The position numbers and the translations under genes were made by a program. Under the pieces are notes generated by a model, which worked only from the letters and a program-made list of their open reading frames with translations, had not been told where the DNA came from and searched no databases. Source: Acaryochloridaceae cyanobacterium OTE_25_metabat_464 (GTDB lineage Bacteria > Cyanobacteriota > Cyanobacteriia > Thermosynechococcales > Thermosynechococcaceae). From it: 64,000 nt of DNA. Location: positions 23,235 through 87,234 of the forward strand of contig JANLSD010000014.1 in the NCBI GenBank assembly GCA_031362245.1. Reading direction: 5' to 3'. Of this stretch, positions 4,017 through 27,241 are shown piece after piece (positions within the stretch are counted from its first letter, which is position 1; every line of letters begins with the position of its first letter).

Positions 4017-4128
4017 GCTTTAAAGACGAAGGAATGGGTGTTTCAGGACTTTTGTCAGTCAGCCAGGGTCTAGTGTCAGTATCGCGACCAGAAGAATTTT
4101 TTGCCAAAGCTTCATAATCGAGCCGAAT

Positions 4129-4666: not shown

Positions 4667-4765
4667 TAGAAGTACTCCTATGACTTAATTCAAAGTATGC
4701 TTAAAGTATGATCATTATCATATCCTGCGATAGTGCAATTTGGCCTGCTCATGACCCCTAAAACA

Positions 4766-6106: not shown

Positions 6107-6228
6107 GCGTAAAACTCCGTGAAGCTGGATGTGGTTTCTCTACTTTACTGATTCTGCTGGCAATGATGCACGTCTGAGCGGAAGGATAACGGTAAAATGC
6201 GAAGGTGACGTTTTCTGCGTGGTGATCA

Positions 6229-6675: not shown

Positions 6676-6688
6676 CTCACCCTATGCT

Positions 6689-7492: not shown

Positions 7493-7757
7493 AATTCATT
7501 GTTCATTTAGCGTTGTTCAAAGACTATCATCAAATCCTTGACTTGCCTAACGTCTCACTTCAATGCTGTAGAGAATGTATAAAATCAAATCCGCATTTCA
7601 GTTTTTATAGCTGTATAAATCAGGCATCAATCCATCTCTAGAAATGAGCCGTTACCAAATCTGTAACCAAACAATGTCTCGGTTAAAAAGCGATTAATTT
7701 AAAGCAAGGGCCGAGGTTAACGGCCCTTAACCCTTAGTAATAATAGGAGATCCGTCG

Positions 7758-9239: not shown

Positions 9240-9259
9240 TCAAAGAATGGAATTCCGCT

Positions 9260-10183: not shown

Positions 10184-10341
10184 ACCAATGTCCTGCGGCG
10201 ACGGTTAAGATGAGCAGTTTCGTATGCGGCGTTACCCGATGTCAAGGGGTTGAGACGCGTTATCGGCCCGATTTTTCTGAAATTGAGAACTTCGTCTTCC
10301 GTCGCAGTAAGCTAAAGAGTGCAGATATTTAAAGTTGACCC

Positions 10342-10677
10342 ATGAGTAATCAAGATGGCGATCGCTTTGCGGGAGGCTTTCTCGCCGGAACCATTTTTGG
10401 ATCGGTTGTGGGTGGCCTTGTGGGCACTTGGCTTGCCACGAAGCTGATTGAATCAGAGGATGATGCCGCATCGCTCTCAGAAAGTGGGCCAGCCAGTATT
10501 GCCAAAGAGCAGTTTAGGCGCATCAAACAGCGGGTTCTCAATGCCACCGAAGAACCGACCGTAGAGGAAGCCCGCCAAGGGTTAGAGGATAAAATTACTC
10601 AGCTTAATGATGCGATCGATTTAGCCCGTCAGCAGCTCAGTAAGGTCAACGGCAACGGCTCACCGGAAGATTTTTAG
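10342..10677 (+). CDS. YtxH-like small membrane-associated protein
   Basis: 111 aa. Gly-rich hydrophobic N-terminus (GGFLAGTIFGSVVGGLVGTWLA) followed by a charged helical tail. Confidence 0.5.
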   Translation: MSNQDGDRFAGGFLAGTIFGSVVGGLVGTWLATKLIESEDDAASLSESGPASIAKEQFRRIKQRVLNATEEPTVEEARQGLEDKITQLNDAIDLARQQLSKVNGNGSPEDF

Positions 10678-10747
10678 ACAATGGCGCTTAAACCAGCGCT
10701 TTTGAATCGATTAGACTAAAGACAGCGTTCGATCATGCAGGAACATC

Positions 10748-11014
10748 ATGCCCACTGAAGTTGCATCGGTTTTAGGCCCAATTACTGGTGGCCTCAGTTA
10801 TTTTATTGGCATTTATACCTTACTCGTCATTGTTAGATGTCTGTTGACGTGGTTTCCCTCCGTAAACTGGAGTAGCCCTCCTTTTTCGGTGCTCGGCCAA
10901 CTCACAGATCCTTACCTCAATCTCTTTCGGAATGTGATTCCCCCGCTGGGAGGGATGGATTTGTCTCCCATGCTGGCGATTTTTGTGCTTCAGATTTTAG
11001 GCTCGTTGCTGTAA
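10748..11014 (+). CDS. YggT/Ycf19-family membrane protein
   Basis: 88 aa; ...VRCLLTWFP...DPYLNLFRNVIPPLGGMDLSPMLAIFVLQ is the YggT signature. Confidence 0.75.
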   Translation: MPTEVASVLGPITGGLSYFIGIYTLLVIVRCLLTWFPSVNWSSPPFSVLGQLTDPYLNLFRNVIPPLGGMDLSPMLAIFVLQILGSLL

Positions 11015-11163
11015 AAGGTGAATCGGCCTTTGCACTGTGTTGGGCTTTGGCCGACATCCCCCACGGCTGCGTTGTGCTTACGCTTCGCAGAGATTCAAAG
11101 GCATAGATCTCAGAACGGATTCAGCTTGTACAATAGATGCCTGTGCTATTGGATAAGGCTTGC

Positions 11164-13509
11164 ATGTTGACCTCTGCCCCGTTTACACCTGAAGAGATTG
11201 CATCAGAAGGGCTTAAGCCCCAAGAGTACGAAGATATTGTCAAACGTCTGGGTCGTCACCCTAACCGAGCAGAACTCGGGATGTTTGGGGTGATGTGGTC
11301 AGAGCACTGCTGCTACAAAAACTCGCGTCCCTTGCTGAAGCAGTTTCCCACGACGGGAGATCGCGTCCTGGTTGGCCCTGGTGAAAATGCAGGGGTGGTG
11401 GACTTGGGCGATGGACTTCAGTTGGCCTTTAAGATTGAATCCCACAATCATCCTTCGGCAGTGGAGCCGTTTCAGGGCGCTGCCACAGGGGTTGGCGGCA
11501 TTCTGCGAGATATTTTTACGATGGGTGCAAGGCCGATCGCCCTGCTCAATTCCCTCCGCTTTGGCGACTTAGCCGATGCCCGTACCCGACGCTTATTTAC
11601 GGGAGTCGTCTCGGGTATTTCTCACTACGGCAACTGCGTGGGCGTACCGACCGTAGGTGGAGAAGTCTATTTTGACCCTGCTTACTCTGGCAATCCTTTG
11701 GTCAATGTGATGGCTTTGGGACTCATGGAAACCCCTGAGATTGTGAAATCTGGGGCGGCAGGCATTGGCAACCCTGTTCTTTATGTGGGTTCCACCACGG
11801 GGCGGGATGGCATGGGCGGAGCCAGCTTTGCCAGTGCAGAACTGAGTGACGCATCAGAAGCCGATCGCCCAGCAGTACAAGTCGGCGACCCGTTCTTAGA
11901 AAAATCTTTAATTGAGGCATGTTTAGAAGCCTTCAAAACAGGGGCAGTGGTTGCAGCTCAGGATATGGGCGCTGCGGGGATTACCTGTTCTACAGCGGAA
12001 ATGTCCGCCAAGGGTGGCGTTGGGGTTGACTTTGATCTCGACAAAATCCCCGTCCGTGAGTCTGGCATGGTGCCCTACGAGTACATGCTCTCCGAATCTC
12101 AGGAGCGGATGCTGTTTGTCGCCCACAAAGGCCGTGAGCAAGAGCTGATTGATATCTTCCATCGCTGGGGCCTTCAGGCAGTGGTGGCAGGCGAGGTGAT
12201 GGAAGACCCGATTGTGCGGATTCGGTTTAAGGGCGGGATTGCGGCGGAGATTTTAGCCACGGCCCTCTCCGACAACACACCCATCTACGAGCGTGAGGTA
12301 CTGGCGGAACCACCTGCCTATGCCCTAGAGGCTTGGGAGTGGAGCTGCGATCGCCTCCCCCCTGCGCTTCCCACAGGGCTAGGGCTCCTGGGTGCCCCTA
12401 AATCCTGGACTCAAGTTCTTAAAGAACTTCTGGCAACGCCAACGATCGCCTCAAAACGATGGGTCTATCGTCAGTATGACCAACAAGTCCAAAACAATAC
12501 GGTCATGCTCCCTGGCGGCGCAGATGCTGCTGTGGTGCGCTTGCGTCCTGTAGACCCACCCATGCCTGCCCACCAAGCCACAAAGGGCGTAGCTGCAACC
12601 GTAGACTGTAACTCCCGCTATGTGTACCTCGACCCCTATGAAGGGGCTAAGGCCACGGTTGCAGAAGCGGCGCGCAACCTAAGCTGCGTGGGTGCAGAAC
12701 CGATCGCCGTTACAGATAATCTCAACTTCGGCAGTCCTGAAAAGCCCATTGGCTACTGGCAGTTAGCAGAAGCTTGCCGAGGCTTGGCGGATGCCTGTCG
12801 CGCTATGAAAACCCCTGTGACAGGTGGCAATGTCTCGCTGTACAACGAAACCTTAGACAGTCGTGGAAAGCCTCAGCCCATCTATCCAACACCCGTGGTT
12901 GGGATGGTGGGGCTGATTCCTGACCTGAGCCAAGTTTGTGGGCAGGGCTGGAAAGTGGAGGGCGATCGCATTTATCTTCTCGGCAGTCCCTTGGGTGCCC
13001 CTACGCCTCTAGTCACCCTAGGCGCTTCAGAATATCTCACCGTCATTCACAACACCGTTGCAGGCCGTCCCCACCGTGTGGACTTTGACCTAGAAACTGC
13101 CGTACAAGCTGCTTGCCGTCACGGCATCCGGCAGGGATGGGTGCGTTCTGCCCATGACAGCGCAGAGGGGGGTGTGGCGATTGCCCTAGCAGAATCCTGC
13201 ATTTCGGGACAGCTTGGCGCACAGCTCACGGTGCCCCATCCTTCAGAGAGCCTACGCTGGGATGAAGTGCTCTTTGGAGAAGGGGGTGCCCGCATCTTGG
13301 TCTCCGTCAATCCAGCCCATCAGACTGATTGGGAAACGCACATAACGCAAGTTCTCGGCAGCTCATGGCAGCATTTGGGATTTGTAAGGGGTGCAGCCGA
13401 TCCCTTAGAACTCAAAACCGAGGATAACCTGACATTAATCTCGGCTAGTATGGAGGAGATCGCTACTCCTTGGCTTACGGCGATCGAGACGTATTTACAG
13501 GCTGACTAA
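11164..13509 (+). CDS. purL: Phosphoribosylformylglycinamidine synthase subunit PurL
   Basis: FGAM synthase II motifs: [39 protein letters not shown]. The ORF opens at 11137, but [12 protein letters not shown] at 11164 fits the family N-terminus. Confidence 0.92.
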
Positions 13510-13587
13510 ATAGCCTTGCCTGTGCTTCAATCGTAATCTCCCCCATTTTCTCCCCCCAAAATTTTCCGATCAGGAGTCATTCCCAGC

Positions 13588-15114
13588 ATGGCCGTTTTTT
13601 CCTCTGCGTCTTTTGACGGTTTGGAGTCTCTTGCGACCCTCAACGAAGGTGTCGATTTAGTCCCTGACCACTCTGACAAACCTGAGGAAGCCTGTGGTGT
13701 CTTTGGCATTTATGCCCCAGGCATAGAGGTTGCCAAATTGACTTACTTTGGTCTGTTTGCCCTTCAACATCGTGGTCAAGAATCGGCAGGGATTGCCACC
13801 TTTGTGGGGGATAAGGTCTCGCTCCATAAGGATATGGGACTTGTCACCCAGGTGTTTGATGAGGATATTCTCAACACGTTACCTGGCCCTATTTCCGTAG
13901 GACACACCCGCTACTCCACCACTGGTTCTAGCCGTGTGGTGAATGCCCAGCCTGTGTTAGTGCAAACGCGCTTAGGGCCGCTGGTTTTGGCCCATAACGG
14001 TAACTTGGTGAATACCGTTGCATTACGTGATCAGCTTATGGCTGATAATTGGGAGCTGGCAAGCACCACAGACTCTGAAGGCATTGCCTGTGCGATCGCC
14101 CATGAAGTACAGCTTGGCAAAGACTGGCTTGAAGGTGCAATTGCAGCCTGCCAGATCTGTGAAGGAGCCTTTAGTCTCGTCGTCGGCACCCCTGATGGCA
14201 TCATGGGCATCCGTGACCCCCACGGCATCCGGCCTTTGGTGATTGGGTTACTCCCCAAGGAAAATCCTGAAGATGATGGGCCGCTTCACTACGTTTTGGC
14301 GTCTGAAAGCTGTGCGTTAGACATTATTGGCGCTGAGTTTATCCGTGATGTAGATCCAGGGGAACTGGTCTGGATTACTGACAAAGGCATTGCGTCTTTT
14401 CACTGGTCAACTCAGCCAGAACGCAAGCTTTGCATTTTTGAGATGATTTATTTTGCACGGCCCGATAGCCAAATGCATGGCGAAAGCCTCTATAGCTATC
14501 GCACCCGTATTGGTCACTATTTGGCCCAAGAAGCGCCCATTGATGCAGATATTGTGATTGCGGTACCGGACTCTGGCATCCCTGCGGCGATTGGTTATTC
14601 CCAGAAATCGGGGATTCCCTATGTGGAAGGTTTGATTAAAAATCGCTATGTGGGCCGCACCTTTATTCAGCCTACGCAAAAAATGCGGGAAATGGGCATT
14701 CGCATGAAGCTGAACCCATTACGGGATGTTTTGGAAGGCAAGCGGGTGATTATTGTGGATGATTCCATTGTGCGGGGCACTACGAGTCGCAAAATTGTGA
14801 AGGCGCTGCGGGATGCTGGGGCAACGGAAGTTCACATGTGTATTTCTTCTCCCCCTGTGACGCATCCTTGCTTCTACGGCATTGATACCGACAGTCAAGA
14901 TCACCTGATTGCTGCAACCAAAACCGTGGCTGAAATTGCGGAACAGATTGGGGTCGATTCGCTGTATTACCTGAGTTGGGAGGGAATGCTGGAGGCAACT
15001 CGCGAAAGTACCACCAGTTTTTGCTCGGCTTGCTTTACGGGGAACTATCCCATCACGATTCCAGAACCATTGAAGCGATCAAAGCTGATGCTGGAAGAAA
15101 CGGCGATCGCCTAA
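13588..15114 (+). CDS. purF: Amidophosphoribosyltransferase
   Basis: Propeptide followed by the CGVFGI nucleophile, HTRYSTTG, the PRTase loop VIIVDDSIVRGTT, and C-terminal Cys residues. Confidence 0.92.
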   Translation: MAVFSSASFDGLESLATLNEGVDLVPDHSDKPEEACGVFGIYAPGIEVAKLTYFGLFALQHRGQESAGIATFVGDKVSLHKDMGLVTQVFDEDILNTLPGPISVGHTRYSTTGSSRVVNAQPVLVQTRLGPLVLAHNGNLVNTVALRDQLMADNWELASTTDSEGIACAIAHEVQLGKDWLEGAIAACQICEGAFSLVVGTPDGIMGIRDPHGIRPLVIGLLPKENPEDDGPLHYVLASESCALDIIGAEFIRDVDPGELVWITDKGIASFHWSTQPERKLCIFEMIYFARPDSQMHGESLYSYRTRIGHYLAQEAPIDADIVIAVPDSGIPAAIGYSQKSGIPYVEGLIKNRYVGRTFIQPTQKMREMGIRMKLNPLRDVLEGKRVIIVDDSIVRGTTSRKIVKALRDAGATEVHMCISSPPVTHPCFYGIDTDSQDHLIAATKTVAEIAEQIGVDSLYYLSWEGMLEATRESTTSFCSACFTGNYPITIPEPLKRSKLMLEETAIA

Positions 15115-15784: not shown

Positions 15785-15844
15785 GTCCTCAAAAATGATG
15801 GAGTAATTTTTCTGTCCTGTTTCTGTCTATAGCTGGCACACTGC

Positions 15845-16336
15845 CTAAGCTGGGGCGATCGCCGTTACTGTCCCATTAGAACCTCTATACTTGAGTGCCC
15901 CATCCTGAACGTATAGAATTCCACCGCCTGCGGGGTTTACGGATGGCGCAACGGTAGCATTTGCGATCGCAATTACACCTTTTCCTTTACCAAACTGATC
16001 GCTGGTGCGGATGCCGATGTTGCCTCCTTCTGCTAACCGTTGGATCACGGCGATCGTCTCGAAGCCTTTATTGTCGGCCTTGCGACCATTGATCTGGAAC
16101 TTGTCGGACTGGACGGCGATCTCGTATTTTCCGGCTGGGGCGATTTGATCGGTTTCGACGAATTCGATGTCGGGATTGGGGTCGTCGATTCTGATTGAGG
16201 CTGCGCCGCCGCTGGTGCCTGATTGTTTGATGTGCAGGGCGGGTTGGTTATAGTCTGGGTTTGTGGCAGATATTTCTAGAACGGAGGATGCTGAGTTGAG
16301 GGTGCCTTCGTTGGATGTGATAGATTGAGTAGCCAT
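15845..16336 (-). CDS. Orphan-operon gene 6: small Gly/beta-rich protein (163 aa) with a tail-fibre-like C-terminus
   Basis: ATG at 16336 is preceded by CAGGAGAAAACA (SD). It has no TM segment or signal peptide. The C-terminus GGGILYVQDGALKYRGSNGTVTAIAPA resembles fibre/spike-tip modules. No firm family assignment. Confidence 0.6.
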   Translation of the reverse strand: MATQSITSNEGTLNSASSVLEISATNPDYNQPALHIKQSGTSGGAASIRIDDPNPDIEFVETDQIAPAGKYEIAVQSDKFQINGRKADNKGFETIAVIQRLAEGGNIGIRTSDQFGKGKGVIAIANATVAPSVNPAGGGILYVQDGALKYRGSNGTVTAIAPA

Positions 16337-16417
16337 TGTTTTCTCCTGTAAGTTAATTTTGATTTTGTTATTGAGAGTTTCCTCCAACCCGACCCCATTT
16401 TTATTTCGGCAGTAAAA

Positions 16418-19400
16418 TTAGATCACCTTAAGTGTTGGATCACCATTGATCATCTGAAATTTGTCGGTCGAACTTGCTTTTGAAAAGTTTTTGTTAGCGG
16501 CGGCGAGCGCATCACCCACCGTTCCACCCGCCAAAAATTCATCCAGCAATGCTTTTATGGCGGGTGCCCATTGAAGGGTATTGGTAAGCCGATCCTTCCC
16601 TGACTGGGTTACGATAACGACGGTATCGCCCCTAATCTTGGTGATACATTGACTCGTTGCACAGCCAGCCAGTACCACAATTTTTGCTTTGGCAGTATTG
16701 AGGAGGTTGGTCAGTTCCGGACATGTGATATCCGGTTTCTGTCTACCCGGATCATACGGTGTCAATCCCAATGTTCTGTTCGTCCCAAGCACCGTGTGTC
16801 CGAAATAGACAACGACCGAACCTGTCGATTGCAGTGAACTCTTAAAGTCAATAGCGGCAGTGCTTGGATTGCTGATAAGATTGATTGAAAGACCGGCCAG
16901 ATCGAATCGGTTTGCTCCCATATCACTGGGGCTTTGATCCACAATCCAATCAAAAAACTGCTGCCTTGTATAGCCGACATCTAGTTTCTTAAAATAGACG
17001 TGCATGAAAATGTCCGTGGTTGGTATATTATGCAGGCTCAATTTCTTGACACCTTGTTTCGGTGTTTGTAGCTCCACCTCGACTGATTCTGTGGCTCCTT
17101 CCGATTCTTCCTCATCTGAGTTCTCAGTCAGCCAGTCAAATTCTTCTCTATCTTCTTGAGCAAAGGCTTCTACAAATGCCTCTTCGGCTGAATCGTCTCG
17201 TGCGTTCAGAGAGGCTTCGTCCTCAGAAACTTCATCGTCCTCAGCAATTTCATGTTCTAGAGCCTCTAACGATTTAGAGGCACGCCTATGCCAGGGCGAG
17301 CCAGCATACTCGCCGTCCATGTATGCTGAACCCGAGGTGTATTTGTAAATATGTACCTCCTTGTCAGAGAGATAGTCGACTCGTACGTCGACCTCAACAC
17401 CCGCAGCCACTGTCACAATCGCGACGGCGTTTTGGAAAAGTGCCAGACTTGGAGCATCAGCACTATTCTTTGACATGAAGCCAGGTTCCAGCCGATAATT
17501 GCCGATCTTGAAATATAGTTCACTCAGTTTCGCGGCGAGCCATGCTTTGCCGGATGAGCGAATGGTTGTCTGTAAGCCTGAGCAGGTGATCTGTAATAGT
17601 TCGGGCTTTGGTCTGCCACTGCCAGGGAGATTGGCAGTCATGCAATAGTTGTGGTGTACGTCGCCCGAAACCAGCACCAGTGTTTTCACTTGGCTCCCCG
17701 TCTTGCGCATAGCGTCGACTAGTCCCCATAAATCGCGCCAGCTCTTATCCCGAATCATATGCTCCAAGTCCGTAGCTCTGCGAAAGACGCGGAGCAATGA
17801 GTCTGAAGCTATGCCCAGCATCGTAGAACTTGTTGCAGCAGCAACAAGGGACGGTAGATTAGCCTGATCCCAAGCCTCAGCAGTTGTTTCGGGCTTCATC
17901 ATGATATTCATCATCTGCTTCTGCAGAAGCAGCGGCGTAGACAGTGCGATGAAAGCTACTGGTCCGGCTGGCCCCTTCTCGACGAGGATTTGACGCATCC
18001 ACGCAAGTTGAGCGTCGTCGATAGTCTGCGACATAGGACGCTTTTTCGGATCGTCGTGGTCAATGATCCTTAACTTGTCGTCGGCTGGAATCATCAATTT
18101 GCGAGTCCGGCAGTCGGGAACCAAAAACGGTGGATCGAACGGGAGTTTATAGTGCCACTCCAGACTCATGCCCGACTGGTAGCTGGCTTTTGGATCCTTT
18201 GGTGGCAATGGAGTGAAGCAAGCACGATGGATACATCTGCGTAGCGCTGGTAGCGCATCAATGCCCTGCTGCTGCGCTGCTGCGAGAGCTTTGACCCGTG
18301 GGTCATCAATTTTCCACTGCGACGGAGCCTTATTGCACCAGCCTTGGTACATCCAGTAAGCGGCCAAGCTGTCAGTCAATGTCTTGGGCCACATTCGGTA
18401 AGCATCCTTTTCATTGTGAAGCATCCGCACCCATGACAGGTCAAAGTTCCAGTCGTCAGTCGCCTCATGGTCGTCGAGCATGAGGAACGTGGGAACCTGC
18501 GCAAGTAACACGCGCACGCTGCGTGAACTAGTCCAGGAGCGCTCGTAGAGATATGCGTACTCAGCAAAGTCAGCTGCGTGTCGTCCCCCTGCAGCCGCAA
18601 GATGCCCACGATGATTCGGCTGAACTATCGCTGAATTGGAGCCATCAACAACTGTAGGAAGCAAAGGTTCAAAATCCGGGATCTGCCATAGCAGGAAGTT
18701 GTGGGAGATGTAGCGGTTGGCCATCGGATTGCGCCGTACTATAGTACGGAAACCAACTGTCCAGTGGGGCAGAAATGCCCGATAAGATCCACTCTTGAGA
18801 TTCAATTTGTCGACGGACTTGAGAAGGGTAAGCGCTTTACTATAGGTTTCCTGGTCTGATACCTTGCCTCCCAGCCCCCACGTCAGCCCGGTCATAAGTT
18901 GATGGGCCAGAACCCGACTCTCCTTATCTGTAGTACCAGTCTTTGGATATCGGTGGTAGATGCTTTTGATCTCCGGATACTTCTCATATAATTCATCGAG
19001 TTTCTTGAGGTCGTCTCTGACATTTTCAACAAACTTTGTGTCAGGGTCTTTGTATGCCTTATATCGGTGCGCGAACCTGCCAGCCCACGCCCCATCGATG
19101 AGCTTATCGCGCACGGATGAGGCCGAATCCACAGGCCCTGGAATCCGTGCGGCGAAGCGTCCCCTAATCATCATTTCGCCATGATCATCACCAATCTGAT
19201 CGGAGTAAATCTGATCCCCGCCGAAAAACAGGAAGTGCGGCCACTTCTCCTTCGGCGCGGTGCGCAGCCAGTCACCAAGACCGTGGAGCATGTCTGGCCC
19301 CCAGTCTTTGCCATTTTCCTTGTCGCCGGGGTACCATCGGCACGAACCTGTCGCGAATTTTAACTGTTTGTCGTATTTTTGACGAAGCGTGCGAAAGGTG

Positions 19401-20662
19401 AGCCACTCGTTCTGACTGAGCGACGCACTCGCAAGCTGCTTTTTCATAGATGTGGCAGCCAACGTCGTCAACTTTGGAAAGACGCCCTCGAATTCCTTTT
19501 GTGCGATAGGAATCGCACCGGATGACGGCAGCGGTACTACTTCAACTGTGTAGTCATAGAACTTTTCCTCTTGCAGATCGTCAATTTCCACTGCTGCAAA
19601 ATGCCGACCACCAACACGCACCGTCGAAGCATAACGCGATGACTCTTTACTATCGCCCGTCTTCTTGTATCGCACTCGAATCATGCTGGGCGTTACCGTC
19701 TCCATCCAAATTACCGAGCGTGCGTAGTCGGTGTAGCGAACGAAGGGACCCACTCGAATGTGCGCAGGAGTTGCACGGATCTGCACCTTGCTAAGTTGCG
19801 AGAGGAATGGTTTAGCAACCCGGATGGGTCGGCGCGTAATGTGCTCATGTTGTAAAAATCTCTCAATGCGGCTGCCAAACGCGGTATCATCCTGCACGGC
19901 AAGATCCATCTCTTGCTGGTAGTGGGGCCAGAAGTTCTTATCTGCTTTCTTATCATCACGCACCAGTGTCCAGTCAAACCAAGTACCACCGTATTCGATC
20001 TTTGGGTCGTCTGGATTCAAGAATGCTCCCGATCGGATAGCGCACACCCGGTCACGCACCTCGAACATAAAAGGCTGGGTGAGGTCAATTTTACTGAAGT
20101 AAGCATGCCCTTTTCTTTTCTCACTGAACTCACCGTGCTCACTGAGGTTGCCCTGGTGGAAGGCATACTCGCCATTGGTGACTGGCATATCCTTATCATC
20201 GACAACAAGGATATGCGGCAGATCTCGAACTTCTTCCTGCTGAGTTTTTATCGGCTTAGGCATTAACTGCTCGAATCGATCCATTGTCTCAGTATGGGAG
20301 GGAGAATAGCTTTCTTCCCACAGTGCAGCCTCTGTCTCAAAATTGCTCTCTCGATATTCATTTTCCTCTGCTTCCATAGAGACTGCTTCATCTTCTCCGG
20401 AATAGACTGAGACTGGGATGGTTTCTTGTTCATCTAATTCACCGAAAAAATCCTCAAATTCTTCCACTCTACCAGTCGCCTCCTCTTCCTCAAAAGCCTC
20501 AAGAAAAGGACTTTCTGGCTGAAACCCAGGCGCAGGAACTCTCCACTGTGCGATTCTTGCCTCGTCAGCCAGAAACTCCTCATTAAGAAATGGCAACTCT
20601 AGTTCTTGTCTAGGTTCGTGGGAATCAAAAGAGTTCTGGAGTGGATCGGATGAGGAAGACAT
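16418..20662 (-). CDS. Orphan-operon gene 5: 1414-aa multidomain protein (acidic ESPF leader, PhoD-like metallophosphatase, acidic linker, C-terminal His/Cys clan-CD/CHAT-like domain)
   Basis: SD TTAGGAGATATCC precedes the ATG. PhoD_N-like sandwich at about aa 300-375. Metallophosphatase motifs: FATGSCRWY (436), FFGGDQIYSD (479), LMLDDHEATDDW (727), LVSGDVHHNY (997). Acidic linker at aa 1130-1200. C-terminal VVVYFGHT (1284) and IVVLAGCAT (1328). Confidence 0.8.
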   Translation of the reverse strand: MSSSSDPLQNSFDSHEPRQELELPFLNEEFLADEARIAQWRVPAPGFQPESPFLEAFEEEEATGRVEEFEDFFGELDEQETIPVSVYSGEDEAVSMEAEENEYRESNFETEAALWEESYSPSHTETMDRFEQLMPKPIKTQQEEVRDLPHILVVDDKDMPVTNGEYAFHQGNLSEHGEFSEKRKGHAYFSKIDLTQPFMFEVRDRVCAIRSGAFLNPDDPKIEYGGTWFDWTLVRDDKKADKNFWPHYQQEMDLAVQDDTAFGSRIERFLQHEHITRRPIRVAKPFLSQLSKVQIRATPAHIRVGPFVRYTDYARSVIWMETVTPSMIRVRYKKTGDSKESSRYASTVRVGGRHFAAVEIDDLQEEKFYDYTVEVVPLPSSGAIPIAQKEFEGVFPKLTTLAATSMKKQLASASLSQNEWLTFRTLRQKYDKQLKFATGSCRWYPGDKENGKDWGPDMLHGLGDWLRTAPKEKWPHFLFFGGDQIYSDQIGDDHGEMMIRGRFAARIPGPVDSASSVRDKLIDGAWAGRFAHRYKAYKDPDTKFVENVRDDLKKLDELYEKYPEIKSIYHRYPKTGTTDKESRVLAHQLMTGLTWGLGGKVSDQETYSKALTLLKSVDKLNLKSGSYRAFLPHWTVGFRTIVRRNPMANRYISHNFLLWQIPDFEPLLPTVVDGSNSAIVQPNHRGHLAAAGGRHAADFAEYAYLYERSWTSSRSVRVLLAQVPTFLMLDDHEATDDWNFDLSWVRMLHNEKDAYRMWPKTLTDSLAAYWMYQGWCNKAPSQWKIDDPRVKALAAAQQQGIDALPALRRCIHRACFTPLPPKDPKASYQSGMSLEWHYKLPFDPPFLVPDCRTRKLMIPADDKLRIIDHDDPKKRPMSQTIDDAQLAWMRQILVEKGPAGPVAFIALSTPLLLQKQMMNIMMKPETTAEAWDQANLPSLVAAATSSTMLGIASDSLLRVFRRATDLEHMIRDKSWRDLWGLVDAMRKTGSQVKTLVLVSGDVHHNYCMTANLPGSGRPKPELLQITCSGLQTTIRSSGKAWLAAKLSELYFKIGNYRLEPGFMSKNSADAPSLALFQNAVAIVTVAAGVEVDVRVDYLSDKEVHIYKYTSGSAYMDGEYAGSPWHRRASKSLEALEHEIAEDDEVSEDEASLNARDDSAEEAFVEAFAQEDREEFDWLTENSDEEESEGATESVEVELQTPKQGVKKLSLHNIPTTDIFMHVYFKKLDVGYTRQQFFDWIVDQSPSDMGANRFDLAGLSINLISNPSTAAIDFKSSLQSTGSVVVYFGHTVLGTNRTLGLTPYDPGRQKPDITCPELTNLLNTAKAKIVVLAGCATSQCITKIRGDTVVIVTQSGKDRLTNTLQWAPAIKALLDEFLAGGTVGDALAAANKNFSKASSTDKFQMINGDPTLKVI

Positions 20663-20746
20663 GGATATCTCCTAAATATATTGGGTTAATCAATGAAAAT
20701 AATCATGAAAAGCCTACGACTAAGTTTCTAAGCCTTGGCTTACGGA

Positions 20747-21892
20747 TTAGGAGCGGACTTTTTCTTTCATATTGCGATCGGTTGCCAACGACCAGTAGTT
20801 GATAATCAAATTCATATCTTGAGCAACTTCATTCGGCTTTTCAACAGGTGTCGTTCCAACAGGAATTGTAGCCATATATAGAGCTGGCACTGTCGGTACT
20901 TCGTTGTAAGTTCCGAGTTCAATTTGAGTTAATAGTCTAGATAGAGGGTCAGCAAGACGGAAGAAGTAGTAAGACTTAGCGTGAACAGGCAATTTAACTT
21001 GATTAGCAATCTTTTTCAACCGCTCCTCTTCATTGGAACCCTCCGCCCGCATAGAGACGACAATTGGGGAATCAAACTCCAGGCTCAAATGGAACCAAGA
21101 CATCATTGATACAAACCAGAACTCTTCTTGGGAGAGATTGCCGTTGATGCGGCGAGTTCTCAACATGTTATTGAGACGGCGGGCTAGAAGAGCGATTGTG
21201 GCATCATCTTTGGGATTCGAGCCACTGGTATTTTTTGCGTTAGCAATTGCAACCCAAACCTCTTTTAGAAATTCCTCAAATGTGCTGACAAATTCACGAT
21301 TAGCAACATCGGGTTTTTCATAAGGATATGGCTTGTTATCACTCGTCCCATGATTGAGATCCATTCCAAACATGCGATAGTAGGCATTCCGTCGAGAAGC
21401 TCCCTGGTCTGGGCGAATGTAGCTTGATACAGAGTAGATACTAAAGGGGGCTGGATCTCGAAAGAACAACTCTTCCGTATTCCGCAGCCAATGTTGAGTA
21501 CTGGCAAGGGGAACACCCAATCGTTCGCTGTGCCGATACTCATAGATTACCCGCCTGAAGATTTCGTAAATATTTGTGTTTTCGATCAGATATGCATAAA
21601 TAAGGTGATCCCAGCAAAAGAGTCCTTTATTTTTAGGGGAAAACTTATCCTTATTTGGAACGTAAAAATCATTTTCATCAGCACCGAGAATTTCAAGAAG
21701 ATAGTCAGGCAGTTGAGGAATATCACTCCGACGGTTAGGATGCCCAAGCGGATCATTATCCGACTTTCTGAACTCCCAGCCCATTTCTAACAAGGCAGCT
21801 AATTTTGACGGATGCAAACGGAAGAGTAGTTCTGCCTTTTGATAAGGTGTATCAAGTGGAAGTGGGGTTCGAGCAGCGATGCGTCTAAACAT
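20747..21892 (-). CDS. Orphan-operon gene 4: hypothetical soluble protein (381 aa)
   Basis: ATG is preceded by ATAGGAGAAACTAACTA. No TM segment and no recognisable motif. AT-richer than its surroundings. Confidence 0.7.
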   Translation of the reverse strand: MFRRIAARTPLPLDTPYQKAELLFRLHPSKLAALLEMGWEFRKSDNDPLGHPNRRSDIPQLPDYLLEILGADENDFYVPNKDKFSPKNKGLFCWDHLIYAYLIENTNIYEIFRRVIYEYRHSERLGVPLASTQHWLRNTEELFFRDPAPFSIYSVSSYIRPDQGASRRNAYYRMFGMDLNHGTSDNKPYPYEKPDVANREFVSTFEEFLKEVWVAIANAKNTSGSNPKDDATIALLARRLNNMLRTRRINGNLSQEEFWFVSMMSWFHLSLEFDSPIVVSMRAEGSNEEERLKKIANQVKLPVHAKSYYFFRLADPLSRLLTQIELGTYNEVPTVPALYMATIPVGTTPVEKPNEVAQDMNLIINYWSLATDRNMKEKVRS

Positions 21893-21960
21893 TAGTTAGT
21901 TTCTCCTATTTTTTATCCTTTAAACTGAAGCAAGCTTCTCTCAAAGTATGCTGAATCAGA

Positions 21961-22326
21961 TCATTTCAGAACCTGGTTTTTGGGTTTACAATCTTCACCG
22001 AGCGGAAGTTCGTCTAGCTGCGGCGAACTTGCCAACGCTTCTTTATCTACCTTCGGTAAACACCATTCCTTTTCAGGGCCAACTAGCGCTTTTTTGATTT
22101 TGAGGAATTCATCTCTGGCATATTCTGGAGTTCCCAGTATCGGGGAAGTTTTTTGGGTTTCTACTGGATTTTCCATGGTTTTCTGCTCTTTTGTTTGTTG
22201 AAATTTCAAAGTGCCTGCAATAAGGTCACTATTTTTGTCAGTTAAACTTTTTTGATCTTCTGTTTTTTTATCTGGCTGGGATGCTCCTGGCGGAGTATTT
22301 TCTGGTCTGCCTTTTTCCTCTGTCAT
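21961..22326 (-). CDS. Orphan-operon gene 3: small Lys/Glu/Pro-rich, probably disordered protein (121 aa)
   Basis: ATG is preceded by TTAGGAGAGGAAAACCC. Low-complexity charged sequence with no known domain. Confidence 0.5.
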   Translation of the reverse strand: MTEEKGRPENTPPGASQPDKKTEDQKSLTDKNSDLIAGTLKFQQTKEQKTMENPVETQKTSPILGTPEYARDEFLKIKKALVGPEKEWCLPKVDKEALASSPQLDELPLGEDCKPKNQVLK

Positions 22327-22356
22327 GGGTTTTCCTCTCCTAATGACGATCGATCC

Positions 22357-23652
22357 TCAAGCAACCTGCAAAGTCTCCCCCAGCCTCAGCATCCAGTCTT
22401 TTTGCTGTTGCAAAACCTCCAACGCCCGATCGGATCGAGTCGCCGCCAGATATCCCGTCAGAGCCAACAGCCGGAGCGGCTCCGTCCAGACCCAATGATG
22501 CGACGTATACAGCGCCGCGCCACCCTGTTGCTCCAGTTTTGCCAACGCTTCCGGGCTAACCCGTCTGGGGTCAATCAGCATCGCCAGGGAATCGCCTCGA
22601 AAGGCTCGCATCGGAGCCGCCAGCGTCAACTCAGCGATTCTCGGCAGCAATGGCAAAGATTGTTGCAACAACTCCCGCACCTCTGGTCTGGCCCGCGCCA
22701 AATCAAGTTCCTGCCGCCATGTCCGCTCCAATTCATCCCAAGGCCCCCTGCCAAAAAACAGACGACACATTTCGATTCCCAGCAACAGGCGGAGATAGCC
22801 GATCGGGTGAGGATCACCTGGAAGATAGCGGAAGGCGATCGCCTCACCACCAGCAATCACCGTATGCAGCCCCGAAACCGCCGCATAGCCCGTATGCGCA
22901 AACGCAAACGTATCAGCCGCAATTTCACTCGACCAGCTTGCCCACATTCCAGCCACCTCTGGCGACACCACCGATAGCTCCCTGTCCAGAAGCGCCGCCA
23001 GTTCGTCACTCCAACCAATAAACTGAGCAACCTGGTGCCCCGCTTCATGAATCAAAGCCGTCGGACGGTAGAGATTGTGTCGCGTAATCTTGATCGCCGC
23101 CGTCAGGCTTTCCGTTTTGCCATCCCACAACCGCAGTCCGGCTTTGAGAATGGAGGCTCCCAACCCCTTATCGATATAAGTCAACACGGGCGGCGTGGTT
23201 TTACCCAACTGATCTAGCAACTGCGACATACTGCGCCGTGCCAACACATCACAGGCACGCAAAAGTGCTGCAAGTCTTGGACTGGTTCGAGTATTGAGGG
23301 CATCAGCATAGAAATCTAGCAACGTTTCCGTCTGTAGATAATGCTGCCGAAATCCCAACAACTGGCGTTGAACCTGATTGATCTCGTCGCGCGTTCTCGC
23401 CACATTCAACTGACCTTGTAGCGTCGCCGCCTGTCGCTGGAGCCGCTCCACCGCCGCCGATAGGTTCTGGCGCAACACAATCCCCGTATACTTTTCCAGC
23501 CCCTCCCAAACACTCGCCGAAGCCAGATCTTCTAAATCCCCCAGCCTCGACGCGGCCATCGCCCAGTGCGACACCTGACGGGCAAGATGTAAACGCAGCG
23601 CATCGGTATCTTCAACCACGATTGAACCCTGGAACAACTTGGACGTTCGCAT
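22357..23652 (-). CDS. Orphan-operon gene 2: putative gluzincin-type zinc metalloprotease (HEAGH)
   Basis: Start MRTSKLF at 23652 is preceded by AAGGGAGG. HEAGH is encoded at 23035-23049 (aa 202-206), followed about 36 aa later by SSEIAADTFAF, a candidate third ligand Glu. The N-terminal half looks helical. Confidence 0.65.
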   Translation of the reverse strand: MRTSKLFQGSIVVEDTDALRLHLARQVSHWAMAASRLGDLEDLASASVWEGLEKYTGIVLRQNLSAAVERLQRQAATLQGQLNVARTRDEINQVQRQLLGFRQHYLQTETLLDFYADALNTRTSPRLAALLRACDVLARRSMSQLLDQLGKTTPPVLTYIDKGLGASILKAGLRLWDGKTESLTAAIKITRHNLYRPTALIHEAGHQVAQFIGWSDELAALLDRELSVVSPEVAGMWASWSSEIAADTFAFAHTGYAAVSGLHTVIAGGEAIAFRYLPGDPHPIGYLRLLLGIEMCRLFFGRGPWDELERTWRQELDLARARPEVRELLQQSLPLLPRIAELTLAAPMRAFRGDSLAMLIDPRRVSPEALAKLEQQGGAALYTSHHWVWTEPLRLLALTGYLAATRSDRALEVLQQQKDWMLRLGETLQVA

Positions 23653-26017
23653 CGGGCATACCTCCCTTAGCCTGCATCTCCTGAATATTGACCGACTCTC
23701 CGCGCAAGATTTTCCGCAGATGTGCAAATCCAGGTGGATTAGTAAAGACAATTTTCAACGTCACCCCATCGGCAGGGTTTTCTGTAGCAGTAATGAAATC
23801 TGGAGATTTCTGTTGTAAGTAAGTCGTCAGATTCTTGCCCAGCCATTCAATCAGATGTTTAATAAACCATTCCCGAACCGCCTGAGGCAGACGACTCAAA
23901 ATTCGTCCTCGCGATCCTTTCGGCGGCACTTTACCGTGGATCGTTTTCAGGTGGCTATGGTGCTTCCCAGTCATGATTTTTTTCAACCGTGGCTCATAGA
24001 CCGCACTTAAATGGGGCATAACCGTGCCGATCGATGCCTTTTGGCGAAGCTTCACAGCGATCGCCTGAGCCACAGCCTCACTAAGAAATAGGTGGATTTT
24101 AATTTGGTCGTGCGGGAAATCAAATCGGATATTGAGTTGTCGGATGCGTCTGGGCTTTGGCGCACCCCCAGCCACTGGCACTACCTGCGGACGCGCTTCG
24201 GGAATCTCCAAATAGTAGAGCCGTTGACCTACCGCAGTTGTAGGCTGATGGTCGAGGTATTTCTCTGGCACCTCCCGTCCCAATCCTGGCTGACCGAACA
24301 CCATTCCAGCCGCCTCTGGGGTGAGGGGATGCAGATGCGTCCAAGCAGTTATGCTACCCAGTCCAGGCACATGCCGCTCGGATTTGCAAATTTGACTCAG
24401 CAGCGTTCCAGGGATTGCTTCGTAAAGATGCACCCGTGCCTTGATCGCTCGACCTGGCGACAGCCCCAGTCGATCTTGCAGAAATTCCGCCAGCGGCACA
24501 TCACAGAACGTTTTCACCACCCGCGCCATGTGGGGAGTAATGATCGTTTCATAAACCCTAGTACATTTTTTGTAACGTTTATTACCCCGTAACGGCTGCA
24601 TCACCCAGGTGGACTTAATGCCAGTCGTCTCTCGTAGTTCAGGTCTGGCTTCATATATCCGTTCTGGCAGAACAGGTGGTAGATTGACAGAAGCAGACTG
24701 TTCAAAGGCTTCTAGGGCATATCCTTCCAACAGTTCTTGGTTATCTAGAATGTACTCTGGCAGTGCCGCAATCTGACGCACCGTATCTTCAAGCGTGGCG
24801 GCAACCGCTGAACGGGCAGCATGGACTTCATTCTCAGGTGTGGCTTCCAAATGAATTAAGCGCAAACCTACGTCCACCATTGCCTGAGATAGTGCTGGAG
24901 CATATTGAGGACCAATGAACTTTCGGATCAGTTTGGCTAAGAACTCGGCAAGCCAATTAACGATCTTGACTCGACCCACCATGCTTATTCCCAGCTTTAA
25001 AGCAGGCAGAATGGCAGGTATAAAGTTTTGCACTAGCGGGGTCGGATCTTCTCCTTCTCTCAATTCGCCAAGCTGCGTTACAAACTGGGCACGTGCTCTA
25101 TCTAACTCACTGAGTGGATCGTGGGTGATCGGCTGCTGCGATTCTTTAACATATTCGGCGATCGCCAATTCCTGTTCTACAGCCTCTTTGCTAAACAAAA
25201 GATTCGCAATTTGCCCATCAAACTCTCGTTGAATTCCAGAAACATCCGGCGTGGCATCTTCTTCGGTAGTGGCTTCTTCTTCAAATTCTTGATTCAGCAG
25301 CCGTTTAGCAAATTGATCGGCCACGGGGCGAAGTGCCGCAGGCAATTTGTTGATACCCTGTTTCACAACTCTCTGCACCAGTGGCATAATCAGTTGTTTG
25401 AGCTTTTGCAGAATGGGTTTGAGTGCAAAGTTGCCAGCTAGATTAATCCCCTGCTTCACTAAACCACCGGCTTTCTTGAGCAAACTACCAAAAAAGTTCT
25501 CAAAGCTGGGAGAGAGACTATTTTGAGGTTCATAGCGATCAATAAAGGATTCAATTTCTGCCTCATCGAGGCTACTTGGGCTACGTTGTCCAAATTCATT
25601 TGCCATCGTGTCCAGAAACATCTCGGCTTCTGTGACCAAAGGTGCAAAGTGCTGCTCTAGCATCCGTGTCGCCTGCATTTTCTGAGCAAGCGGATCTCCA
25701 TATTCACTCTCAAATCGATCTTGATAAAGTTCGTCGGCCTCACTGACCAACTCAAATACCGCCTCATCAAACTCCTCATCATAGAGTTCGCTGAGAAACT
25801 CCATCATCTCCTCAGCTTCTGGATCGATCGATCCCGCTTCGTTTTCCAATTCATAGACGGAACGGAACGGACTTTCGCGTTGAGCAAGATTTGAGTAGAA
25901 TGCCTGTCCTTCTGATGCTTCCGATGCCTCATCAAAAAACTTCATCGTTATATTAGGAAAGGGGGACTCAAAATCTTGGGATTGAGAGCCATAGTTCTCT
26001 TCTGTAAAAGATGACAT
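23612..26017 (-). CDS. Orphan-operon gene 1: 801-aa protein with acidic double-ESPF leader followed by a cationic amphipathic segment
   Basis: SD AAGAGGTAACA precedes the ATG. ESPF at aa 17-20 and 48-51. Glu/Asp-rich up to about aa 165, then FFGSLLKKAGGLVKQGIN...RVVKQGINKLP. The remainder shows no recognisable domain. Confidence 0.75.
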   Translation of the reverse strand: MSSFTEENYGSQSQDFESPFPNITMKFFDEASEASEGQAFYSNLAQRESPFRSVYELENEAGSIDPEAEEMMEFLSELYDEEFDEAVFELVSEADELYQDRFESEYGDPLAQKMQATRMLEQHFAPLVTEAEMFLDTMANEFGQRSPSSLDEAEIESFIDRYEPQNSLSPSFENFFGSLLKKAGGLVKQGINLAGNFALKPILQKLKQLIMPLVQRVVKQGINKLPAALRPVADQFAKRLLNQEFEEEATTEEDATPDVSGIQREFDGQIANLLFSKEAVEQELAIAEYVKESQQPITHDPLSELDRARAQFVTQLGELREGEDPTPLVQNFIPAILPALKLGISMVGRVKIVNWLAEFLAKLIRKFIGPQYAPALSQAMVDVGLRLIHLEATPENEVHAARSAVAATLEDTVRQIAALPEYILDNQELLEGYALEAFEQSASVNLPPVLPERIYEARPELRETTGIKSTWVMQPLRGNKRYKKCTRVYETIITPHMARVVKTFCDVPLAEFLQDRLGLSPGRAIKARVHLYEAIPGTLLSQICKSERHVPGLGSITAWTHLHPLTPEAAGMVFGQPGLGREVPEKYLDHQPTTAVGQRLYYLEIPEARPQVVPVAGGAPKPRRIRQLNIRFDFPHDQIKIHLFLSEAVAQAIAVKLRQKASIGTVMPHLSAVYEPRLKKIMTGKHHSHLKTIHGKVPPKGSRGRILSRLPQAVREWFIKHLIEWLGKNLTTYLQQKSPDFITATENPADGVTLKIVFTNPPGFAHLRKILRGESVNIQEMQAKGGMPDANVQVVPGFNRG

Positions 26018-26149
26018 TGTTACCTCTTAATCGATTGAAGAATATATGAATACAGAAATCAATCAAAATCTTGCTCTACAGACAATTTCAAAATCTCAAA
26101 TCAAAATCTTACAGATAATAACCTACGCTAGGATCTGGCGAACTAACTT

Positions 26150-26593: not shown

Positions 26594-26969
26594 TCATAGT
26601 GCTTCGATCTTAACGCTTCCACCCTCAATAGTATCAACTTGTAATCGATAACCGTAGAGTAACGACATCCCAAGCAGAGGCTCCGTTTCTGATTCTGCAA
26701 TGTAGATTTCGCGGTACTGCCCATCCCAAATCACGGTCGCAGTATATAAATCGAACAGGGTTTCACTGCCATCGCCTAATGTAACAATATCAGAGGCACT
26801 CCAGGGTAAATCAAGGGTAGTGATGATTGCAGACGGTAAAGATAAAAATCCACTGAACCCTGTATCAATTATCAATCACAGTATCAATCACTTGCCGTTG
26901 TCCATCCGAGTTACTGACAACAAGGGGAAGCGTTGCTTCACGACGTAAATTCACGACTCCGTAAATCAT
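26594..26969 (-). pseudogene. Retropepsin-like (clan AA) aspartic protease, frameshifted at the catalytic DTG codons
   Basis: ATG at 26969 gives MIYGVVNLRREATLPLVVSNSDGQRQVIDTVIDN* (stop at 26865-26867). The rest continues in another frame from 26875 as IIDTGFSGFLSLP...LLGMSLL. Three TATCAAT copies lie at 26863-26888. Confidence 0.65.
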
Positions 26970-27241
26970 GGATTCTGCTTCAGACTTCGTGCTCCAAAAT
27001 GATCAACGGCGCGATGCCCGATCCGAATTACCCAAGGCTGAGCGTCGGGGTATTGCTCAAACAGGCGATTGGTTGCGGGTACGATATTTTCATCGACCTC
27101 AAAGGCTCCAGTTTCAATGTCGATCGCCACAATTTTGCTTTCATTTCCCGCTTCGACTTGTTGCCGAATACTGGATTCATAGAGTGCTTGCCCACGTTGA
27201 GCCAATTCTTCTTTGCTATAACGTCGTTGGCGAACTGCCAT
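26966..27241 (-). CDS. Small partner protein of the retropepsin-like protease (91 aa)
   Basis: Its stop overlaps the protease ATG (ATGA at 26966-26969). This gene-pair architecture recurs in cyanobacteria. Function unknown. Confidence 0.55.
   Translation of the reverse strand: MAVRQRRYSKEELAQRGQALYESSIRQQVEAGNESKIVAIDIETGAFEVDENIVPATNRLFEQYPDAQPWVIRIGHRAVDHFGARSLKQNP

Follow-up and report, generated by a model that had tools for sequence, protein, structure and literature searches.

What is encoded by six tightly packed genes that share one strand, lie among housekeeping genes and resemble no named system? The question is raised by a stretch of 64,000 nucleotides (nt) of contig JANLSD010000014.1 from the Acaryochloridaceae cyanobacterium OTE_25_metabat_464 (hereafter the window), in which six open reading frames (ORFs), here termed g1 to g6, were all found on the minus strand where an initial annotation of this DNA had placed them. 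That annotation had regarded the block as an accessory island fitting no named system, and had suggested a module for the maturation of toxins or secreted effectors, which proved to be the best-fitting reading. Our analysis indicates that g1-g4 are the conserved core of a module found in many bacterial phyla and some archaea, that the genes behind this core encode exchangeable cargoes joined to a common N-terminal leader, and that the module is, with a probability of roughly 0.55, a polymorphic antibacterial effector system whose products would degrade cell envelopes and would depend on their leader for maturation and release.

From its 5′ end, the block (all coordinates on the minus strand) comprises g1 (23612-26017; 801 amino acids, aa), a conserved core protein that is itself leader-tagged; g2 (22357-23652; 431 aa from its ATG, with the ORF extending to a TTG at 23751), the core protein with a HEAGH motif; g3 (21961-22326; 121 aa), a small and variable core protein between g2 and g4; g4 (20747-21892; 381 aa), the most conserved core protein; g5 (16418-20662; 1414 aa), the PhoD-like cargo of the window strain; and g6 (15845-16336; 163 aa), a lineage-limited accessory protein. 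By these coordinates the start of g2 overlaps the end of g1 by 41 nt and the further gaps measure 30, 68, 84 and 81 nt, and the sequence holds Shine-Dalgarno strings (AAGAGG, AAGGGAGG, AGGAGAGGA and three times AGGAGA) 5-9 nt upstream of each ATG, all of which bears out the layout first described. The flanks are likewise as described, with purL, purF and a haloacid dehalogenase (HAD) hydrolase on one side and a paralogue of elongation factor G (EF-G) on the other. In other assemblies of the same organism, an independent gene caller predicts identical genes of 121, 381, 1414 and 163 aa. The idea of an accessory island also stood: DNA similarity to related cyanobacterial loci (L075, L076 and L001; blastn) delimits the island to 15787-26046 on the minus strand, starting 29 nt upstream of the g1 ATG and ending 58 nt past the g6 stop.

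We scanned one genome per species, mapping the core by tblastn with the six window proteins, and obtained 68 genome loci from about 20 phyla of bacteria and archaea. Among the hosts are Cyanobacteria, Bacteroidota, Actinomycetota, Alpha-, Beta-, Gamma- and Deltaproteobacteria, Myxococcota, Acidobacteriota, Planctomycetota, Verrucomicrobiota, Nitrospinota, Dormibacterota, Calditrichota and Paenibacillus, together with the archaea Methanosarcina and Methanothrix, such that Gram-negative bacteria, Gram-positive bacteria and archaea are all represented. In 57 of the 68 loci, g1, g2 and g4 lie collinear in a stretch of at most 5.5 kb; of the remainder, two are rearranged, eight have a contig end too near g4 to judge, and one is a fragment only. 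Homologues thus adjoin one another in essentially every assessable genome, and the recurring gene order is far beyond chance. The rearranged loci, L038 (10001-19468) and L067, both from Acidobacteriota, begin with g4, after which come a partial g1, g2 and a split PhoD-like cargo. Pairwise-distance matrices of g1, g2 and g4 correlate with r = 0.71-0.91, and the observed value was reached in 0 of 999 permutations, which argues that the three families are inherited and transferred together. A slot of 200-620 nt between g2 and g4 contains, in nearly every locus, a small ORF equivalent to g3. The initial annotation had treated all six genes as a fixed unit; instead, g1-g4 form a four-gene core that is inherited as a unit, and one to three cargo genes come after it. 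Conservation does not extend to full-length g5, and L066 is the only one of the 68 loci in which g6 was detected.

The module is widespread, in some archaea as well as in many bacterial phyla, and moves horizontally. Neither PLSDB plasmids nor IMG/VR viral contigs yielded a member of the g4 family, and on this ground an origin from phages or plasmids was rejected. A single-linkage cluster that joined g4 with cargoes was judged to be probably artefactual, arising from ORF calls that ran too long or overlapped in GC-rich loci.

The gene right after g4 is almost always large, lies on the same strand and encodes a product of 200-1700 aa with a conserved N-terminal tag. This tag reads '(L/D)ESPFL(D/N)EE(L)F', then after about 25 aa '(L)E(S)ESPFL.AFE', and then passes into an acidic, aromatic-rich stretch, making up an acidic leader of about 60 aa with two 'SPF(L)' motifs. 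In g5, the leader (aa 1-65; 20468-20662, minus strand) reads ..LELPFLNEEFLADEARIAQWR...PESPFLEAFEEEE. By regular-expression count, the tag is readable at the N-terminus of 48 of the 57 genes after g4, and a hidden Markov model (HMM) of the leader matches the gene adjoining g4 in 30 loci, with more tagged genes further downstream in three (L027, L032 and L052). An exhaustive phmmer search with residues 1-80 of g5 returned 25 representative clusters of 56-992 aa, in which the leader nearly always occupies residues 1-80, and Pfam searches on 21 of these 25 leader-sharing clusters found nine families. The leader has no Pfam match. A hydrophobic N-terminus is lacking in 49 of 50 cargoes (maximum 12-residue hydropathy below 1.4 over the first ~55 residues), and the median net charge of the first 120 aa of the cargoes is -17.5.

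A leader common to the two large window proteins, noted in the initial annotation, is real. In g1 (aa 1-65; 25823-26017, minus strand) it consists of a motif A (..ESPFPN..) and a motif B (..ESPFRSVYELE..) with an acidic helix after them, and the two-part tag '(Q/S)(S/A)PFL..SF' plus 'SPF(L/V)S.YE.E' is kept in all 34 aligned g1 orthologues, from cyanobacteria to Methanosarcina and Hodarchaeota. Because g1 carries this related two-part tag, it looks like a conserved substrate of the factor that reads the leader.

Behind the leader, the cargoes are wholly unrelated to one another and range over peptidases, amidases and glycosylases that act on murein, peptidoglycan-binding (PG-binding) or OmpA domains, proteases of the trypsin-like and M35 types, phospholipase D and amine oxidase. 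Among 50 cargoes, Pfam detected PG_binding_1 in 11, Trypsin in 10, DUF2272 in six and VanY/M15 in six, with two each of Amidase_2, SLT, M23, OmpA, amine oxidase, beta-lactamase fold and PhoD/DUF7800; no nuclease, TIR or NADase domain is among the top Pfam families. DUF2272 is a papain-like family (PMC10318531). The variation reaches down to close relatives of the window strain: where g4 is 89%, 85% and 74% identical, the cargo is, respectively, an OmpA-like protein of 902 aa, an M35-like protein of 828 aa and a phospholipase D (PLD) protein of 994 aa, each behind a leader that is 61-86% identical to residues 1-70 of g5. DNA synteny with four relatives (L075, L076, L077 and L001; blastn) breaks at 20430-20484, that is, at about codons 60-77 of g5, and past the break similarity returns only at the C-terminal module of g5 (one relative) and at g6 (two relatives). 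Recombination swaps the cargo exactly where the leader ends, and related strains carry the same N-terminal region on unrelated C-terminal domains, which is the criterion for polymorphic toxins.

The archaeal cargoes bear on the question of what these enzymes attack. In Methanosarcina, a cargo combines DUF2272, PG_binding_1 and SLT behind the same leader, and in Methanothrix the leader precedes VanY, M15 and PG_binding. Neither Methanosarcina nor Methanothrix has murein, so the targets of these murein hydrolases would be other cells.

The cargo of the window strain follows the same pattern. In order, g5 comprises the leader, an acidic linker, a domain of ~165 aa and a DUF7800 plus PhoD-like metallophosphoesterase, which another acidic linker joins to a C-terminal His/Cys module. 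The PhoD-like core that the initial annotation had recognised has genuine, weak Pfam matches, with DUF7800 at 3e-12 (46.8 bits) and PhoD at 2.8e-5 (23.8 bits, under the curated 27-bit cutoff), and the translation shows the motifs GDQIY, DDHE and GDVHH. The DUF7800 plus PhoD-like core (aa 301-1125; 17288-19762, minus strand) is a swapped cassette: over this stretch there is no DNA similarity to L075, L076, L077 or L001, and the same core serves as cargo in five distant loci (L018, L024, L038, L050 and L052). The C-terminal module of 224 aa (16421-17092, minus strand) has the conserved strings 'YFGHT' and 'LAGCAT', possibly a clan-CD-like His/Cys pair; it has no match in Pfam or the PDB, and shares 65% identity with the C-terminal part of the cargo of L076, which is M35-like. 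Searches of the PDB with g5 gave no meaningful match either. This PhoD-like giant, with its His/Cys domain as a second candidate protease, had been taken for a fixed member of the system, and is rather a swappable cargo cassette. Linkers rich in D, E and F, resembling the acidic third part of the leader, occur in g5 (aa 1125-1200) and also in the cargoes of L002, L072, L076 and L077; phmmer aligns aa 42-80 of g5 with its aa 1152-1186, and the linkers may be extra processing sites or simply low-complexity sequence.

The core proteins themselves have few points of attachment to described families. None of g1-g4 has a match in Pfam, NCBIfam (June 2026) or PADLOC; the best PADLOC-DB score is Cmr5 on g1 (E = 0.045), and PADLOC-DB gives nothing for the other five proteins (g2-g6). 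As judged by sequence comparison, the three core families g1, g2 and g4 are without relatives in Pfam, NCBIfam, PADLOC, PHROGs or PDB sequences. Foldseek likewise placed neither the g1 model against the PDB nor the g4 model against the PDB or BFVD (E < 0.001), and the description of the block as fitting no named system has held up.

The 460 homologues of g1, all of them annotated 'hypothetical' and lacking any Pfam domain, include one on a 3.28-Mb contig of Methanosarcina flavescens and one in a Hodarchaeota metagenome-assembled genome (MAG). Its AlphaFold2 (AF2) model, with a predicted local distance difference test (pLDDT) score of 68 overall, shows a disordered acidic leader (aa 1-65, pLDDT <50), long helices spanning some 400 residues and, at the C-terminus, an alpha/beta domain (aa 470-801, pLDDT 80-90). 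The helical part has a weak PHROG match to a tape-measure protein (E = 0.006) and contains cationic amphipathic helices with a hydrophobic moment of 0.65-0.81 and a net charge of +3 to +9 per 18 residues; magainin, melittin and cecropin A score 0.51-0.66 in the same hydrophobic-moment calculation. Over its first 110 residues, g1 has a net charge of -19 to -27.

The HEAGH motif noticed in g2 is real as well, and its codons (aa 202-206; 23035-23049, minus strand) fall in invariant alignment columns. Across 31 orthologues, H202, E203 and H206 (HEAGHQ) together with E243/D247 (SEIAAD) show no variation, and this gluzincin pattern marks g2 as a putative gluzincin-type metalloprotease. A g2 match to the SRN2 coiled coil was rejected as compositional. 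The g3 family is fast-evolving, with 47-62% identity between g3 and its cyanobacterial relatives, a weak C-terminal motif EF..IK.AL..P...W.LP (EF..IKKAL.GP...W.LP as given for g3 of the window), and genes of 52-135 aa found at the slot by gene callers. In contrast to this variable protein, g4 stays 50-55% identical from cyanobacteria to Bacteroidota; the protein database lists over 1548 homologues of g4, which are called 'hypothetical' wherever a name is given and of which not one has a Pfam domain, and its AF2 model (pLDDT 82, predicted template modelling score (pTM) 0.83) is wholly alpha-helical. The g4 N-terminus, 'MFRR' (codons 1-4, 21881-21892), is nearly invariant from cyanobacteria to archaea and unusual for an N-terminus; a role resembling the twin-arginine translocation (Tat) signal was dropped, there being no hydrophobic stretch behind it. 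No segment of g1-g4 resembles a transmembrane (TM) helix, the top 19-residue hydropathy being 1.49, and export of core or cargo by way of TM segments or signal peptides was dropped on these hydropathy results.

Taken together, an envelope-attacking repertoire, polymorphism between close relatives and murein hydrolases in archaea without murein argue that the cargoes are weapons aimed at other cells, and it is on these observations that the reading as an antibacterial effector system is built. In such a system, g1 and the cargo would be made in the cytoplasm as inactive, leader-tagged pro-proteins, and the core would read the shared leader, with g4 and/or g3 as receptor or chaperone. The zincin g2 would cut the leader off, and possibly also cut at the leader-like acidic linkers between cargo domains. 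The cationic amphipathic helices of g1 might be masked by its own acidic N-terminus until processing, after which g1 would act as a membrane-active partner, so that the enzymes could exit the producer without Sec or Tat, possibly via lysis of a sub-population, and/or might help the enzymes to pass the outer layers of the target. The hyaluronidase-like g6 could serve as an optional helper that degrades or binds glycans. These specific assignments for g1-g4, drawn from sequence features, are clearly less probable than the overall reading, and we put them forward as tentative.

The logic of the module is that of a polymorphic toxin system, namely a shared N-terminal region, recombining enzymes and an associated peptidase. 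Such systems, as set out in the 2012 survey by Zhang, de Souza, Anantharaman, Iyer and Aravind (PMC3482391), likewise place a conserved N-terminal trafficking region on variable enzyme domains, recombine at the boundary, often include a processing peptidase, in some cases form effector arrays, and spread horizontally. The module differs from them in that its leader is a short, acidic, two-part SPF tag and not an RHS, LXG, PAAR, MAFB, TcdB/TcaC or PVC-metallopeptidase region, and in that it has no known secretion pathway linked to it, no conserved immunity gene that we found, and in g1, g2 and g4 proteins without detectable relatives. Targeted term searches of the survey yielded no description of the module. 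A second likeness is to bacteriocins released by lysis, such as colicins, S-type pyocins and tailocins, which are cytoplasmic antibacterial proteins without a signal peptide, tightly regulated and served by no dedicated secretion machine. Colicins also have a disordered N-terminal region with short linear motifs, for instance the two separated OmpF-binding sites in ColE9. Unlike these bacteriocins, however, the module has no homologue of a lysis protein or holin and no immunity gene that we found, its cargo consists of envelope-directed enzymes and not of a nuclease or pore-former, it has a four-protein core, and it occurs also in Gram-positives and archaea.

Several observations weigh against an antibacterial effector system of this kind. 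With no gene for a membrane protein, an ATPase or a channel in the module, the step of export is conjectural. Clustering of flanking ORFs revealed no conserved immunity gene downstream of the cargoes, where small unique ORFs do exist, and the lack of one is unusual for polymorphic toxin loci aimed at kin. The 31 g2 orthologues match no Pfam peptidase family at E <= 1, DUF4157 included, and a profile search found no PDB relative; the initial view of the HEAGH protein as a candidate protease derives from its invariant motif. The roles of g3 and g4 are guesses, and the high conservation also fits a structural (shell) or an enzymatic role. Cargoes of the trypsin-like, M35, calpain-like and His/Cys-domain types are not obviously envelope-specific. 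Finally, the flavin amine-oxidase genes after g4 in L020 (11080-14484) and L022 (11108-14437) lack a leader at the N-terminus; the leader HMM places its match within the ORF (aa 595-634) or at the C-terminus (aa 1069-1106), which may reflect fused or mis-called ORFs or another cargo topology.

The neighbourhoods of the module were compared by all-against-all clustering of flanking ORFs from the 68 loci with 10-kb flanks, and six neighbourhoods with a full or near-full core were annotated with Pfam. The sole neighbour family common to more than a handful of the 68 loci is that of transcription regulators. In the six annotated neighbourhoods, the module stands alone among housekeeping or unrelated genes; neither sheath, tube or baseplate families nor an ATPase or a known secretion-system family adjoin it, the window operon itself has no Pfam match to injection-system parts, and the sole secretion-type gene in the annotated flanks is a coupling protein (TraG-like) of a type IV secretion system (T4SS), ~5 kb upstream in L077.

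These neighbourhoods bear on the possibility that the module supplies cargo to a machine encoded elsewhere, such as an extracellular contractile injection system (eCIS), a cytoplasmic contractile injection system, a type VI secretion system (T6SS) or another device. The leader would then be a loading signal, g1 a co-loaded plug or tape-measure-like protein, g4 and g3 loading chaperones and g2 a maturation protease. The host range (Streptomyces, cyanobacteria, Bacteroidota, Myxococcota and Methanosarcina) does resemble that of eCIS, the cargo of the Photorhabdus virulence cassette (PVC) is known to have disordered N-terminal loading signals, and the weak tape-measure match of the helical part of g1 points the same way. 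Indeed, eCIS/PVC cargo and the toxins associated with the DUF4157 zincin share with the module a disordered N-terminal signal on diverse toxins, a zincin and a similar taxonomic range that includes archaea. Further encouragement comes from Strock et al. (2025; PMC12352652), who report that 68% of archaeal peptidoglycan hydrolases are without a signal peptide and that these signal-less ones are weakly enriched in genomes with a phage-sheath domain. We nevertheless consider such an arrangement unlikely, as no machine gene of this type recurs in the flanks of the 68 loci, no sheath, tube or baseplate gene lies within 10 kb in the six neighbourhoods, g2 matches neither DUF4157 nor any other Pfam zincin, and the g4 family is missing from the viral contigs and plasmids searched. 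The module always travels self-contained, and in Gram-positive, Gram-negative and archaeal hosts alike the leader varies together with the core as one unit.

The peptidoglycan hydrolases surveyed by Strock et al. (PMC12352652) are themselves a close likeness, comprising murein hydrolases with peptidoglycan-binding domains that can only target bacteria and that mostly lack a recognised signal peptide, a fraction that the module could in part explain; the proteins characterised in that work are single and secreted by Tat or Sec, in contrast to the module, of which targeted term searches of the paper yielded no mention.

A protein nanocompartment or particle is, in our estimate, improbable. Here the shell would be built by g4, perhaps together with g3 or g1, with the SPF leader as a loading peptide trimmed by g2 after loading, and the loaded particle would be freed by lysis to deliver its lytic enzymes, much as in phage proheads with their capsid-targeting sequences. 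The T4 prohead, with its capsid-targeting sequence and gp21, and encapsulin loading peptides do offer a precedent for a short tag on unrelated cargoes with a dedicated, co-encoded protease. Several properties of the module agree with this: the extreme conservation of g4 without a recognisable catalytic motif, one short tag on every cargo and on g1, a protease that is always co-encoded, strongly acidic cargo N-termini and linkers facing a very basic region in g1, and the lack of membrane components. However, the g4 model is a monomeric all-alpha fold unlike HK97, bacterial microcompartment (BMC), ferritin, encapsulin or viral capsid folds (PDB, BFVD), and cargoes that reach 1700 aa are very large by the standards of known compartments. 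The module also differs from proheads and encapsulins in having no HK97-fold or other shell protein and no phage genes, in the unmatched folds of g4 (PDB, BFVD) and g1 (PDB), and in its absence from viral contigs.

Could the lytic enzymes instead be turned on the producer? A self-directed system for abortive infection, anti-phage defence or programmed lysis, in which a trigger activates g2 and the released enzymes hit the cell that made them, would account for a protease beside latent lytic effectors, as in protease-activated suicide modules such as the bacterial gasdermins, and would suit an accessory island of sporadic distribution with regulators adjoining the module in some phyla. We regard this as quite improbable, since none of the six proteins has a PADLOC match and Methanosarcina and Methanothrix carry murein hydrolases and peptidoglycan-binding domains while having no murein to attack; the defence role that the initial annotation had allowed for is unlikely for the latter reason. 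The cargo set (peptidoglycan hydrolases, PLD, OmpA/peptidoglycan-binding proteins) moreover matches interbacterial effectors and not defence effectors, and rapid swapping of cargo between close relatives is typical of antagonism loci.

Last, the notion of ordinary wall-remodelling, scavenging or autolysin genes that happen to stand beside unrelated hypotheticals, with no system at all, can appeal to the VanY, SLT, M23 and PhoD domains also present in housekeeping enzymes, but is effectively refuted by a gene order kept in 57 of 68 loci across about 20 phyla, by the co-evolution of the families, by a shared leader in place of the usual signal peptide, by presence in archaea without murein, and by the swapping of cargo as a cassette.

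Among the genes around the core, g6 had been counted as a fixed member of the operon, and is an accessory of some lineages that occurs also in an unrelated gene cluster. Its C-terminal 45 residues (aa 119-163) match the C-terminus of the small hyaluronidase of Streptomyces koganeiensis (PDB 4UFQ; E = 2.7e-9), the N-terminal stretch matching weakly; profile searches gave phrog_4013 in PHROGs and nothing in Pfam, NCBIfam or PADLOC. The family has 1266 matches, ~80% identical and almost all of exactly 163 aa. It follows the cargo in L066, L075, L076 and L078, and in L078 the core is 49-58% identical to the window core, yet g6 is 82% identical. A function as cognate immunity protein was rejected: g6 follows cargoes of differing types and is found in unrelated clusters (L079 and L080), which makes it an optional accessory.

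The two unrelated clusters drew our attention for their own sake. L079 (GCA_964441775.1, CAYTVL010000005.1:99491-119982; cluster 64-12622) and L080 (ENA ERZ25039555, contig_4547; cluster 126-13873) have g6 homologues that are 80-82% identical to the window g6 and 88-89% identical to each other and to the g6 of L078. The clusters comprise at least 14 same-strand genes, almost none with a Pfam domain; their products include pairs of paralogues (295/431 aa and 456/446 aa), a Cys-rich protein of ~160-175 aa, an M35-like protein and one of the M23 type. In at least nine cases the product starts 'MY[IVL]..' (such as MYIQESE, MYVRLHE, MYIRTHE and MYLFETS), and a sigma-54 activator lies near the L079 cluster. 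On these sequence features, the cluster may be a second uncharacterised effector system with its own type of leader.

Regulators lie just upstream of g1 in other phyla, and none was seen at the cyanobacterial window. The genes fall into three sets: L008 4102-5100, L015 4158-5177, L033 480-1790, L049 4319-5311 and L052 4196-5557 in the first; L007 1795-5907, L021 767-4783 and L047 45-1457 in the second; and L074 4642-5915 in the third. They comprise sigma-54 enhancer-binding proteins; hybrid two-component sensors, seen in Bacteroidota and in the Zhuqueibacterota locus L047, whose output is of the AraC type; and, in Aquimarina, an extracytoplasmic function (ECF) sigma factor with a putative anti-sigma gene. 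Dedicated regulators directly upstream in several phyla suggest that the module is tightly regulated.

At the upstream edge of the island, the initial annotation had reported a decayed retropepsin gene pair. A 93-aa ORF (26594-26875, minus strand) starting 'MIIDTGFSGF', with the retropepsin DTG motif (IDTG), and a 91-aa neighbour (26966-27241, minus strand) are indeed present, but neither has a Pfam match at E <= 0.01, leaving the retropepsin label weakly supported. Since the pair lies outside the block shared with related loci and has no Pfam support, it was rejected as a member of the system. Elsewhere in the window, GC content falls to 0.39-0.43 at 52001-56000 and 60001-62000, compared with ~0.50 in the remainder, and these stretches may be further islands.

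The module is apparently undescribed. The literature covered, with subscription journals lying outside it, yielded no description of such a module; DUF2272, although among the commonest cargo domains, is named in just four papers there, and these concern no such system. A bolder view than that of an antibacterial effector system in general is that the module constitutes a new route of delivery or release made up of soluble proteins only, with g1 as a leader-tagged, membrane-active carrier, g2 as zincin, g3 as a small adaptor and g4 as an all-alpha protein of new fold, which would operate without ATPase or membrane channel in Gram-negatives, Gram-positives and archaea. Such a route would also explain part of the archaeal murein hydrolases without signal peptides and would make the SPF leader a portable export or loading tag; we hold it to be a real possibility, somewhat short of even odds.

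If the reading as a leader-dependent antibacterial effector system is true, these findings would add a very widespread new route of trafficking and maturation to those of interbacterial weapons, with more than 1500 g4 clusters in about 20 phyla, and would offer a candidate answer to the question, posed in 2025, of how archaea and many bacteria release wall hydrolases without signal peptides. They would also provide a catalogue of leader-tagged lytic enzymes, along with a portable tag that could possibly be used for loading or exporting proteins. Even if release should depend on another machine, the rule of leader plus core would be a new way of finding antibacterial effectors in genomes.

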